Below, piece by piece: positions 15,899-27,156 of a stretch of DNA of 64,000 nt. The notes under the pieces are model-generated. The model did not search any database, was not told the origin of the DNA, and was given only the letters and a program-made list of their open reading frames with translations. The translations under genes and the position numbers were made by a program. The DNA lies in assembly GCF_054482595.1 (NCBI RefSeq), contig NZ_CM137008.1; one strand, written 5' to 3'. Every line of letters starts with the position of its first letter. The stretch's first letter is position 1.

Positions 15899-16744
15899 TC
15901 AGCCACGTCTTGCACGCTGGATGTCGCGTATCCGCTGTTTTTCTGCGCGAGCCATCAGATACCAGGCGATAAATCCGACAATTCCGACCGCACCAAGGAT
16001 CAATGTTGCCAGGGCGTTGATTTCCGGATTCACCCCCATCCGCACGCTGGAAAAGACCAGCATCGGTAACGTGGTGGCTCCCGGCCCGGATACAAAGCTG
16101 GCGATCACCAGATCATCAAGCGACAAAGTAAAAGCCAGTAACCAGCCAGAAATGATCGCGGGCATGATCATCGGTAGCGTAATGACGAAAAACACTTTCA
16201 GCGGCGTCGCACCGAGATCCATCGCTGCTTCTTCTATCGAGCGATCCAGTTCCCGCAATCTTGAAGAAATAACGACCGCCACATAAGCCGTACAAAAAGT
16301 GACATGCGCCAGCCAGATGGTGAGCATACCGCGGTCCGCAGGCCAGCCAATGGCATGAGCAAGCGCGACGAATAATAACAACAGCGACAAGCCCGTGATG
16401 ACATCTGGCATTACCAGCGGCGCGGTGATCATAAAGGCAAAGCCATTTGATCCGCGAAACCTGCCAAAGCGCACCAGCACCACCGCCGCAATAGTCCCGA
16501 GGATCGCCGCCGCCGTTGCCGCACAGGCAGCAATTGTCAGGCTTAAACCAACCGCACTCATCATCGCGTCATCGCGCAATAACTCACCATACCAGCGCGT
16601 TGACCAGCCGGCCCACACCGTCACCAGCTTCGAGCTGTTAAACGAATAGATAACCAGCATCAGCATTGGCGCGTAGAGAAAGGTAAAGCCCAGCAGCAAA
16701 ATCACAATCCGCCAGGGCGAACGAACTACCGGTAAATTATTCAT
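15899..16744 (-). CDS. potI: Putrescine ABC transporter permease
   Basis: ORF 15899..16786; start at MNNLPVV gives 281 aa and 4-nt overlap with potH stop. Confidence 0.9.
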   Translation of the reverse strand: MNNLPVVRSPWRIVILLLGFTFLYAPMLMLVIYSFNSSKLVTVWAGWSTRWYGELLRDDAMMSAVGLSLTIAACAATAAAILGTIAAVVLVRFGRFRGSNGFAFMITAPLVMPDVITGLSLLLLFVALAHAIGWPADRGMLTIWLAHVTFCTAYVAVVISSRLRELDRSIEEAAMDLGATPLKVFFVITLPMIMPAIISGWLLAFTLSLDDLVIASFVSGPGATTLPMLVFSSVRMGVNPEINALATLILGAVGIVGFIAWYLMARAEKQRIRDIQRARRG

Positions 16745-17694
16745 CCGTGTTCTCCCACGCTTTTTTGCTGGTGTTTGTGGAACCACATTATCGGCACAAT
16801 TAGCAGCAGCAACATGATGATCGCTACCGCCGAGGCCACCGGCCAGTCGCGGTTGTTAAAGAACTCCTGCCACAGCACGCGCCCGATCATGATGCTGTCC
16901 GGGCCACCGAGCAGTTCCGGGATCACAAACTCGCCCACAGCCGGGATAAACACCAGCATCGATCCGGCAATAATCCCACCTTTAGTCAGCGGCACGATCA
17001 CAGTAAAGAACGTTTTCAGCGGTCGTGCACCGAGATCCAGCGCTGCTTCCACCAGCGAATAATCAATACGAATCAACGCAGTATAAATCGGCAGTACCAT
17101 AAACGGCACGTAAGCGTAAACAATGCCAATATAAACTGCCAGATTGGTATGAAGAATGGTCAGCGGTTGATCGATAACCCCCAGCCACAGCAGAAAATTA
17201 TTCAGCACACCGTTGTTTTTTAATATTCCCATCCAGGCGTAGACACGAATCAGAAACGAGGTCCACGACGGCAGGATCACCAGTAGTAATAAGATATTAC
17301 GGGTCGAAGGCTTACTGTGCGCCACCGCCCACGCCAGCGGATAGCCGATCAGTAAACAGCAAATAGTCGAAATCGCCGCCACCTGTAACGACTGGAGATA
17401 AGCATCAAAATAGAGCGGATCGTCGGTCAGTTGCAGAAAATTACCGAGATTAAGAGTGATGGAAAGTTGCCCCTCAGCCCACTCCATCAGTTCGGTATAA
17501 GGTGGAATAGCGCGCGCCATCTCTGCCAGGCTTATTTTAAAGACAATCAGAAATGGCAGCAGAAACAGCAAGATCAACCAGATATACGGCAACGCAATGA
17601 CCAGTTTGCGCCCATGCTTCATTTGCAACTGCGACAACCACAGCTTAAATCCGCCCGGCGGTTTCGACTGGGCAGCAGGTTCAAGTGTACTCAT
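16741..17694 (-). CDS. potH: Putrescine ABC transporter permease
   Basis: 317-aa ORF; synteny. Confidence 0.9.
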   Translation of the reverse strand: MSTLEPAAQSKPPGGFKLWLSQLQMKHGRKLVIALPYIWLILLFLLPFLIVFKISLAEMARAIPPYTELMEWAEGQLSITLNLGNFLQLTDDPLYFDAYLQSLQVAAISTICCLLIGYPLAWAVAHSKPSTRNILLLLVILPSWTSFLIRVYAWMGILKNNGVLNNFLLWLGVIDQPLTILHTNLAVYIGIVYAYVPFMVLPIYTALIRIDYSLVEAALDLGARPLKTFFTVIVPLTKGGIIAGSMLVFIPAVGEFVIPELLGGPDSIMIGRVLWQEFFNNRDWPVASAVAIIMLLLLIVPIMWFHKHQQKSVGEHG

Positions 17695-23990: not shown

Positions 23991-25676
23991 GTGAATATAA
24001 ACGTCGCCGAATTGTTAAATGGGAATTACATTCTGTTATTATTTGTGGTCCTCGCGCTTGGGCTATGTCTCGGAAAGTTACGACTTGGTTCGATCCAACT
24101 GGGTAATTCCATTGGCGTTTTAGTCGTATCGCTGTTATTAGGCCAACAACATTTCAGCATTAACACCGATGCGCTTAATCTTGGCTTTATGCTGTTTATT
24201 TTCTGCGTCGGGGTCGAAGCCGGACCGAACTTTTTTTCCATTTTTTTTCGCGATGGGAAAAATTACCTAATGTTAGCACTGGTGATGGTTGGCAGTGCGC
24301 TGGTGATCGCCTTAGGGTTAGGTAAGCTGTTTGGCTGGGATATTGGCCTGACGGCCGGTATGTTAGCAGGCTCTATGACGTCGACACCGGTTCTGGTCGG
24401 TGCTGGCGATACACTGCGTCATTCCGGCATGGAAAGCAGGCAGCTCTCACTGGCACTGGATAATCTGAGCCTCGGATATGCCTTAACCTATTTAATCGGT
24501 CTGGTGAGTTTGATTGTTGGTGCGCGTTACTTGCCGAAATTGCAGCATCAGGACTTACAGACCAGCGCCCAGCAAATCGCCCGCGAACGTGGCCTGGACA
24601 CTGATGCCAACCGTAAGGTTTATTTACCGGTGATCCGCGCCTATCGCGTCGGCCCGGAGCTGGTGGCCTGGACCGACGGCAAAAATCTGCGTGAACTGGG
24701 TATTTATCGACAAACCGGCTGCTACATTGAACGTATTCGACGTAACGGGATTCTGGCAAATCCAGACGGTGATGCCGTGCTACAAATGGGCGATGAAATA
24801 GCGTTGGTAGGCTATCCCGACGCCCATGCCCGACTCGATCCCAGCTTCCGTAACGGCAAAGAAGTTTTCGATCGTGACCTTCTCGACATGCGTATCGTCA
24901 CTGAAGAAGTGGTCGTTAAAAACCATAACGCCGTTGGCAAACGTCTCGCACAACTGAAGTTGACCGATCACGGTTGCTTCCTTAACCGCGTTATTCGTAG
25001 CCAGATTGAGATGCCGATAGATGACAACGTCGTGCTTAACAAAGGTGACGTTTTACAAGTCAGCGGCGATGCCCGCCGCGTAAAAACCATCGCCGATCGC
25101 ATCGGCTTTATCTCGATTCACAGCCAGGTCACTGACTTGCTGGCATTCTGCGCCTTCTTTGTTATTGGGCTGATGATCGGGATGATCACATTCCAGTTCA
25201 GCACATTCAGTTTCGGCATGGGGAACGCTGCCGGGTTGTTATTCGCCGGAATTATGCTGGGCTTTATGCGTGCTAACCACCCGACCTTCGGTTACATTCC
25301 GCAGGGTGCATTAAGCATGGTGAAAGAGTTCGGCTTAATGGTGTTTATGGCAGGCGTTGGTCTGAGCGCCGGTAGCGGTATTAATAACGGTCTGGGCGCG
25401 ATTGGCGGTCAGATGTTGATTGCCGGATTGATTGTCAGTCTTGTGCCCGTGGTTATCTGTTTCTTGTTCGGTGCTTATGTATTGCGAATGAACCGCGCAC
25501 TGTTGTTCGGCGCAATGATGGGCGCACGCACCTGCGCGCCGGCAATGGAGATCATCAGTGATACAGCTCGCAGTAACATCCCGGCGCTGGGCTATGCGGG
25601 CACCTACGCAATCGCCAACGTCCTGCTGACGCTGGCAGGGACAATCATCGTCATGGTATGGCCAGGATTAGGATAA
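23991..25676 (+). CDS. ybjL: Putative transporter YbjL (AAE family, two TrkA-C domains)
   Basis: 561-aa polytopic ORF; synteny. Confidence 0.9.
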
Positions 25677-25717
25677 AACTGAAGTTGCCCTGAAAATGAA
25701 ATTTTTTTGCACAACCG

Positions 25718-25750
25718 CAGAACTTTTCCGCAGGGCATCAGTCTTAATTA
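25718..25750 (+). promoter_or_regulatory. Candidate sigma-E promoter of rybB
   Basis: GAACTT (-35, 25720..25725) and GTCTTA (-10, 25741..25746) ending about 7 nt upstream of the rybB 5' end. Confidence 0.5.
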
Positions 25751-25752
25751 GT

Positions 25753-25831
25753 GCCACTGCTTTTCTTTGATGTCCCCATTTTGTGGAGCCCATCAACCCC
25801 GCCATTTCGGTTCAAGGTTGGTGGGTTTTTT
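25753..25831 (+). ncRNA. rybB: RybB small RNA (sigma-E-dependent, Hfq-binding)
   Basis: Matches the RybB sequence as I recall it (GCCACTGCTTTTCTTTGATGTCCCC...) ending in a GC-stem plus T-run intrinsic terminator; lies downstream of ybjL as in K-12. Confidence 0.85.
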
Positions 25832-26008
25832 GTTATCTAAATCCCCAAAATCTCCATTCTCTCCCCTGTCCAAAGCCTTATCTGACTGTCCTCTCTTCCA
25901 GAAAATCATTCTTTTTCGTACAAAGAACAAATAGTTATTGAGAAGCTTATTTAAAAACCTGAACAAAATCGGTAATATTCCTGGCTTTGCAATACACAGA
26001 TTTTTTAT

Positions 26009-26560
26009 ATGGATATTAACGAGCTAAAAGAGTGCCTTCATCTGGAAGTCATTGGTAAAAGTAGGAAATTCACATGGCGTAAAGTCATTGTAAGGGCGAT
26101 GAAACATCGGCGCGTTCGTTACTTATTCTGGTGGCGTATCGCTAAATACGGCCATGAGAAAGGTGGTTACTGGCGGAAAATTGCTGGCAAAATTGAGCGA
26201 AAAATCCTTGATAGTTATGACGTTAAAATCCCATTAGTCGTTGATATAGGCAAAGGGTTGGATATTTCATACTTAACGGGAGTTGTTATCGGTCATAACG
26301 TAAAAATTGGTGAGAATTGTTCCATCAAACCCGGCGTAACCATCGGCCTACGTGGCCATTTTGACGAAATGGATATACAGATTGGCAACAATGTCACCAT
26401 TGGTTGCAACGCCTCCATTCTGGGCGGCAAAGTCTATATTGGAGATAACGTCACGATAGGTGCACATGCATTGGTTTTGCATGATATCCCAGAAAACTCC
26501 ATTTTTATCAATAAAATAGAATACGAGATTATCCCGAAAAAAGTTATAGCCGAAATGTGA
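26009..26560 (+). CDS. Hexapeptide-repeat (LbH) O-acetyltransferase, WcaB/WbbJ/CysE-like; strain-specific
   Basis: 183-aa ORF with tandem [LIV]-G-x-x-x-x hexapeptide repeats (VVIGHNVKIGENCSIKPGVTIG...); AT-rich; absent from K-12 rybB-rcdA region. Confidence 0.75.
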   Translation: MDINELKECLHLEVIGKSRKFTWRKVIVRAMKHRRVRYLFWWRIAKYGHEKGGYWRKIAGKIERKILDSYDVKIPLVVDIGKGLDISYLTGVVIGHNVKIGENCSIKPGVTIGLRGHFDEMDIQIGNNVTIGCNASILGGKVYIGDNVTIGAHALVLHDIPENSIFINKIEYEIIPKKVIAEM

Positions 26561-26619
26561 TCGCCAGTGAGATGATTAGCGCTATCGAGGGAGGTGTTGC
26601 GTCTTATCGACCTCTGTAG

Positions 26620-27156
26620 CTACCCAGCAACCCTCTCAACCATCCTCAAAATCTCCTCGCGCGATAGCGGCTTACGGTCGGTGACAAAATGCAGCGTCAT
26701 CCCCTCAATAAACGCATCAAGCGCGCGGGCGGTTCCGGGTTCAAACCATTGTTCGAGCGTTTGCTGACTGCGCTGCATCCAGTTTTGCATTACCGTTTTT
26801 AATAGCGGTTTTCGGCTAGCCAGCGCGTAGAGCTGGTACATCAGCTCCATGTTATCCGGCGTTGCCACCTGTGAGCTGTAGATCATATCGGTGATAGCCT
26901 GGCATGCGCCTTGAGCATCACTAACATCGCTAAAAAATGCCTGATATTGCCGGGACATGATCTCAGTAAAACTGCTGAACGCCTCCAGCAACAACTCATC
27001 AATTCCTGAAAAATAGTAGGTCATCGATCCCAACGGTACCCCGGCAAGGGTAGCAATTTTGCGGTGCGTAACAGCATGTATTCCGTAAAGTTTCACCGCC
27101 TCCAGCGTGGCCTGGATAATTTTTTCTCGCCGTTGCGGATCGTTAGCGCGACGCAT
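26620..27156 (-). CDS. rcdA: TetR-family transcriptional regulator RcdA
   Basis: ORF 26620..27186; start at [15 protein letters not shown] gives 178 aa; TetR helix-turn-helix. Confidence 0.85.

Follow-up and report, generated by a model that had tools for sequence, protein, structure and literature searches.

An intact rybB gene at a P2-like phage attachment core, next to a single-gene islet of probable prophage origin, in an O145-like Escherichia coli chromosome

The segment 25753..25831 on the plus strand of the window (the whole 64-kb stretch of DNA that was analysed) is an intact rybB gene in its usual place on an O145-like E. coli chromosome. We hold with high confidence the overall reading of the locus, in which rybB retains its sigma-E promoter, its 3' end contributes to the attachment (att) core of P2-like phages, and an islet that is probably a prophage leftover follows this core. 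The gene is one already known, at an integration hotspot already known. An intact RybB in its usual position adds nothing new, and annotation built on ORFs or produced by PGAP leaves the gene unlabelled. The features of the locus are as follows.

23991..25676, plus strand: ybjL, a 561-aa ORF for an aspartate:alanine antiporter family transporter, named after the syntenic ybjL annotation in RM9872 and K-12
25719..25727, plus strand: predicted sigma-E -35 element AGAACTTTT, with 8 of 9 matches to GGAACTTTT (consensus from PMC1804206)
25741..25746, plus strand: predicted sigma-E -10 element GTCTTA, with 4 of 6 matches to GTCAAA, 6 nt before 25753
25753..25831, plus strand: rybB sRNA gene, 79 nt, with the boundaries of K-12 b4417 (the Rfam match spans 25756..25834)
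25753..25768, plus strand: RybB 5' end GCCACUGCUUUUCUUU, identical to K-12
25787..25831, plus strand: Rho-independent terminator, with a 12-pair stem (25787..25798 with 25816..25827) and a U6 tail (25826..25831), from the predicted fold and the Rfam structure line
25821..25841, plus strand: att core GTGGGTTTTTTGTTATCTAAA of P2-like (Peduoviridae) prophages, from comparison of attL, attR and attP and from a deposited att
25841/25842: edge between core and islet, with the junction sequence GTTATCTAAATCCCC
25842..26619, plus strand: AT-rich islet, 778 bp, 40.6% GC, in place of 9 bp (ACTTATCTA) of the K-12 rybB-rcdA spacer, delimited by the K-12 junctions
26009..26560, plus strand: 183-aa left-handed beta-helix (hexapeptide-repeat) acetyltransferase, annotated 'serine acetyltransferase' (Pfam Hexapep, E = 1.4e-14)
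26620..27156, minus strand: rcdA (ybjK), an intact transcriptional regulator gene and the usual downstream neighbour of rybB

An Rfam scan covered the entire window, with the gathering scores as cutoffs. The RybB model, RF00110, matched 25756..25834 on the plus strand over its full length (model positions 1-79 of 79) with a score of 104.1 bits (E = 2.5e-20) against a gathering score of 40, and no non-canonical pairs were flagged. The K-12 MG1655 record shows rybB (b4417) as a 79-nt ncRNA between rcdA and ybjL; the window matched it at 78 of 79 nucleotides, the lone mismatch lying at 25821, where K-12 has A and the window G, and positions 25623..25820, promoter region included, were identical to K-12 base for base. 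These identities, like the K-12 junctions, come from anchored comparisons; a global MAFFT alignment put the left flank wrongly across the insertion. An earlier note on this DNA had claimed a 79-nt RybB sequence downstream of ybjL, ending at 25831, and had proposed the Rfam model and an alignment to K-12 rybB as checks. Both bear the claim out, with ybjL ending at 25676 and the 3' end falling at the coordinate given. Its remark that the gene is invisible to an ORF track is true but trivial, rybB being non-coding; RefSeq (PGAP) records likewise list no feature under rybB.

The gene order ybjL-rybB-rcdA is retained, with rybB on the strand of ybjL and the islet interposed between rybB and rcdA, and RM9872, an E. 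coli O145 strain, is collinear with the window. A copy of rybB was present in 5,418 of 5,426 E. coli genomes. Of 5,420 E. coli records, 738 have the exact 82-nt allele of the window, and almost all of the remainder differ from it by one base. The sole other Rfam match in the window was naRNA4 (RF02564, nucleoid-associated ncRNA 4 / REP-type element) at 9685..9765 on the minus strand, with 72.4 bits against a gathering score of 59.5; MicA gave no match in the same whole-window scan. Elsewhere in the window, potH (16741..17694, minus strand) is an intact 317-aa ORF, whereas it is frameshifted in the otherwise identical RM9872 record. Either the window comes from a close relative of RM9872 or the RM9872 record contains a sequencing error.

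The region upstream of rybB carries a sigma-E-type promoter. The published sigma-E consensus consists of a -35 element GGAACTTTT and a -10 element GTCAAA (Papenfort et al. 2006, PMC1804206). The elements GAACTT and GTCTTA, which the earlier note had reported at -35/-10 spacing, were located at 25720..25725 and 25741..25746 and are identical to K-12. GAACTT is separated from TCTTA by 16 nt, and the -10 element lies 6 nt from the G at 25753, the first base of the annotated K-12 rybB; K-12 likewise agrees with the -10 consensus at 4 of 6 positions. By itself the motif is weakly significant, because GAACTT-N16-TCNNA occurs once in the 64-kb window where 0.37 occurrences are expected by chance, and 30 of 100 shuffles gave at least one match. 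The weight of the promoter derives instead from its base-for-base identity with the studied K-12 promoter, the 130 nt upstream of rybB (25623..25752) being 100% identical. Given this identity and the published consensus, rybB in the window strain is likely to depend on sigma-E. A simple promoter/terminator scanner applied to 25500..26100 reported nothing; its models are limited to sigma-70 promoters and to hairpins with loops of 3-8 nt.

At the other end of the gene, the terminal GC hairpin and T-run of the earlier note are predicted both by folding and by the Rfam structure line. The predicted hairpin (25787..25827) has a CCC/GGG core and a small branched apical part of 17 nt, and is followed by T6; the scanner missed it because the apical part exceeds its loop limit. 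The substitution at 25821 converts the U25793-A pair of the stem into a U-G wobble, at a predicted cost of approximately 0.6 kcal/mol (-21.8 kcal/mol for the window, -22.4 for K-12), and leaves the predicted structure unchanged. The terminator and Hfq-binding 3' module of RybB accordingly retains 12 pairs and U6, one of the pairs being a wobble.

Two readings would deny the window a working rybB. According to one, the resemblance to RybB arose by chance or the sequence is a relic that is not expressed, and there is no gene; the PGAP records without annotation at rybB would agree with this, but the E-value of the covariance model, the conservation at the same locus in nearly every E. coli genome searched, and a promoter identical to that of the experimentally studied K-12 gene effectively refute it, leaving it next to impossible. 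According to the other, rybB is impaired, the A to G change at 25821 weakening the terminator/Hfq-binding module and giving rise to unstable RNA or read-through. The change does lie within the terminator stem and a U-G pair is slightly weaker, by the 0.6 kcal/mol given above. We nonetheless regard impairment as highly unlikely: pairing is kept and the predicted structure unaltered, the U-tail is intact, Rfam flags no non-canonical pair and scores the gene well above its cutoff, and an allele present in 738 of 5,420 records is not a private lesion. Absence of an Rfam match, or mismatches disrupting the terminator, had been named beforehand as evidence against RybB; the match is there, the U-G pair is kept and the allele is common. 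The preferred reading of an intact gene is therefore retained.

The 5' end of RybB is the seed that pairs with omp mRNAs, and we take 25753..25768 (GCCACUGCUUUUCUUU) to be this target-pairing seed in the window. The earlier description of RybB as an envelope-stress regulator agrees with a well-characterised mechanism: envelope stress releases sigma-E, which switches on synthesis of the RNA, and the RNA binds Hfq, pairs with omp mRNAs and speeds their decay (PMC1804206). Judged by identity with the K-12 and Salmonella genes, the window RybB should function in the same way, and both Hfq binding and omp mRNA repression are expected of it. On this model, accumulation of unfolded outer-membrane proteins would lead sigma-E (RpoE) to drive the promoter, yielding an Hfq-dependent RybB of ~80 nt; its terminator and U-tail would bind Hfq, and its 5' end would pair with omp mRNAs and accelerate their decay. 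The resulting lower load of outer-membrane proteins would then damp sigma-E, closing a feedback loop.

The 3' end of rybB is also part of a phage attachment site. Beginning within the descending terminator stem, the att core consists of the final 11 nt of RybB and the 10 nt that follow. A shared core, (A/G)TGGGTTTTTTGTT followed by ATCTAAA or GCCTGAA, was found in the window, in attL and attR of STEC309, in attR of strain 100181, in attP of the phages ESSI2_ev129 and ev040, and in the att of Klebsiella phage 4LV2017, which its depositor annotated as AATGGGTTTTTTGTTGCCTG. A complete P2-like prophage separates rybB from rcdA in STEC309, its ogr end facing rybB and its int end facing rcdA, and ATGGGTTTTTTGTT is directly repeated on its two sides. 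The P2/186-like prophage of strain 100181, with genes for an integrase, CI, CII and Fil, terminates in ...CCCATTTAGATAA, continuing into GTGGGTTTTTTGTTATCTAAA and then TCCCC..., the order at this junction being the phage arm, a copy of the RybB terminator end and, directly, the islet. In both strains, the site holds a prophage with its tyrosine integrase next to one att copy, and in STEC309 it is a full prophage. The excised-form records of ev129 and ev040 (Peduoviridae) show attP as ...CCCATTTATATAA joined to ATGGGTTTTTTGTTGCCTG.... A related integrase and arm were detected in 1,139 genomes, a figure that counts the integrase and arm and not occupancy of rybB. In the passages on this site in two published studies, E. 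coli rybB is hotspot #29, used by Felsduovirus prophages (PMC10121019), and the Klebsiella pneumoniae prophage island Kpn38RybB is placed precisely within rybB (PMC4048246). Since the phages bring their own copy of the core, integration rebuilds a complete rybB. Use of the RybB terminator as an att core explains the variability of the locus among E. coli.

Several further observations concern the phage arms and the records that contain them. The phage arm together with the core folds as a hairpin of its own with a T-run; this hairpin, mimicking the RybB terminator, probably ends int transcription. Between int and the core, the motif AACTTATTGTTTTT recurs in the arm (L005 38428..39560; L004 5927..6021; L039 1354..1447), and these repeats may be arm-type binding sites. 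On the host side, the 16 nt after rybB exist as two alleles, which differ downstream of the GTT: a K-12 type, ATCTAAAACTTATCTA, and a Sakai type, GCCTGAAATTTATCTA (L003 6183..6200), the latter in 2,916 genomes. Over 27 bp, the Sakai type does not differ from the phage P' arm, which suggests repeated exchange of att sequences between phage and host. GCCTGAAATTTAT downstream of the core, as in Sakai, was considered as a phage scar and dropped; present in 2,916 genomes, it is a common host attB allele. The ev129 and ev040 records contain the Nextera adaptor CTGTCTCTTATACACATCT or its reverse complement (L007 ~3565..3600; L009 ~1690..1730), probably an assembly artefact at the ends or at the circular junction. 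The record NZ_JBRERE010000002.1, 'plasmid pE100181_149' (149.8 kb), carries rcdA, ybjJ, ybjI, ybjH, mdfA, ybjG and deoR as well as a P2-like prophage, and probably represents a piece of chromosome wrongly labelled as a plasmid.

The G/A polymorphism at 25821 sits at the first position of the att core (window 25821; L003 6170..6200; L005 4500..4520). G accounts for 13.6% of records overall and the distribution of G and A is non-random, in counts uncorrected for phylogeny; a GCCTG flank accompanies 629 of the 738 G-allele records, a count likewise uncorrected. Wherever the islet immediately followed rybB, the G allele was present (67 of 67 genomes) and, because of this linkage, the terminator variant and the islet constitute one haplotype. 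One phage arm has G at the position matching 25821; on these uncorrected counts, the G may have been donated by a phage.

Beyond the core, homology with K-12 stops at 25841 (...GTTATCTAAA), 10 nt past RybB, and restarts at the rcdA stop codon at 26620. The earlier note had RybB mark the exact edge of the acetyltransferase insertion; the edge does adjoin RybB, but it lies at 25841/25842, 10 nt beyond the 3' end at 25831. Foreign DNA starts at this distance because the 3' half of the RybB terminator is the phage att core and the islet begins where the core ends. The GC content of the islet is 40.6%, compared with ~51% in the flanks. The islet was found in 70 of 5,426 E. coli genomes (~1%), sequenced O145:H28 strains included, at no less than 99.7% identity. 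In a population search with the right edge, all genomes but the 70 islet carriers matched from 26620 only, and a synonymous SNP at 26626 within rcdA travels with the islet.

The protein encoded by the islet scored below cutoff with every specific NCBIfam model (EpsC, 81.5 against 150; CysE, 71.5 against 210.65; WcaB, 55 against ~195). The annotated function of serine acetyltransferase was consequently rejected, the generic hexapeptide-repeat fold alone being supported. If surface polysaccharide is its target, the enzyme could matter for serotyping or phage sensitivity. Homologs aligning over more than 90% of its length are encoded by phages, with amino acid identities of 76% (vB_EcoM-613R2), 55% (Hafnia phage yong2), 38-49% (ESSI2_ev015, ev129 and ev040) and 43% (Citrobacter phiNP). 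They are single accessory genes located at a prophage end or beside tail-fibre genes. The closest of them, that of vB_EcoM-613R2, lies beside tail-fibre genes and not at attP. In ev040 and ev015, the acetyltransferase family is found just past attP, and in ev129 the homolog (47% identity) is the first gene past the core on that arm, on the same strand and ~166 nt from the GTT, as against 175 nt in the window. The ev129 attP is identical to attB over 21 bp and then diverges, at the same position as the edge of the islet.

These comparisons argue, somewhat better than evenly, for the islet being the leftover rybB-proximal (P') arm of a P2-like prophage together with its accessory gene. A phage targeting rybB would have integrated to give the order rybB, core, acetyltransferase, and later deletion of the rest of the prophage would have left the islet. 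An edge exactly at the core end, the 40.6% GC content and the presence in ev129 of related cargo on the same strand at a like distance are what a remnant of this kind would display. Several searches came back negative within their scope. Outside its coding region, the islet resembled no phage of the searched collections at the DNA level. No donor phage was found for its 3' end in IMG/VR, where the protein relatives were only of the 76% tail-fibre-adjacent type, nor for the core-islet junction in species-representative genomes. The window gave only chance-level near-matches to a second core copy, and no residual phage gene fragments are left beside the acetyltransferase in the islet. The reading of the islet as a retained phage arm is the only mildly new element.

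The alternative that deserves most weight is that the islet has nothing to do with phage integration, being for example a spacer recombined from a different Escherichia lineage, and that its closeness to RybB is coincidental. Non-coding flanks that match no phage in the searched collections, and the failure of IMG/VR and the species-representative genomes to yield a donor phage, speak for it. The right edge is flush with the rcdA stop codon and linked to the synonymous SNP inside rcdA; such an arrangement is also compatible with import from another lineage through homologous recombination, and the movement of the SNP at 26626 with the islet is expected of a recombination tract. Identity of at least 99.7% across 70 genomes, O145:H28 and numerous strains of other hosts among them, suggests that homologous recombination has spread the islet. 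Recombination, however, explains how the islet moves between strains and not how it first originated. Coincidence also has to account for a left boundary located at the very base where ev129 attP and host attB, after 21 bp, cease to be identical, and for a gene family, strand and distance from the core that match the P'-arm cargo of phages using the rybB att site. We consider an origin unrelated to phages possible but distinctly less probable than the prophage leftover.

A more speculative proposal links the islet to envelope stress. The G-allele terminator and the islet would together be a phage-derived haplotype in which a low level of transcription started at the strong sigma-E promoter of rybB would pass the U-G terminator, itself slightly weakened, reach the same-strand acetyltransferase 175 nt downstream and place it under envelope-stress control. 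The simple scanner detected no sigma-70 promoter between rybB and the acetyltransferase (25500..26100). Were the proposal true, acetylation of surface polysaccharide would be linked to sigma-E in O145:H28 and its relatives, but we judge it very improbable.

Compared with known systems, the window is closest to K-12 RybB (b4417, RF00110), with which it shares the locus, the promoter (130 nt identical), the 5' seed and the architecture of the terminator. K-12 differs in having A at the equivalent of 25821, forming a U-A pair, and a 19-nt spacer to rcdA instead of the 778-bp islet. MicA resembles RybB in being a sigma-E-dependent, omp-repressing sRNA of the same regulon with the same promoter type (PMC1804206), but is unrelated in sequence and located at luxS-gshA. 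The published rybB hotspot, as described in its passages in PMC10121019 and PMC4048246, shares this core at the 3' end of RybB. In other E. coli, such as STEC309, the site is taken up by full prophages, whereas the window has a single-gene islet starting at the core end and no prophage; those hotspot passages do not mention the islet. Phage hexapeptide acetyltransferases, similarly, sit within phages, while the window copy stands without a surrounding phage. Phages that integrate at the 3' ends of tRNA, tmRNA and sRNA genes (e.g. ssrA) carry the 3' end of the gene, and the RNA gene is rebuilt, as at rybB. ESSI2_ev015 has a tRNA-type att with the same acetyltransferase cargo adjoining attP. Sites of the tRNA type use the acceptor or T-arm, whereas the rybB site uses the terminator of an Hfq-dependent sRNA.
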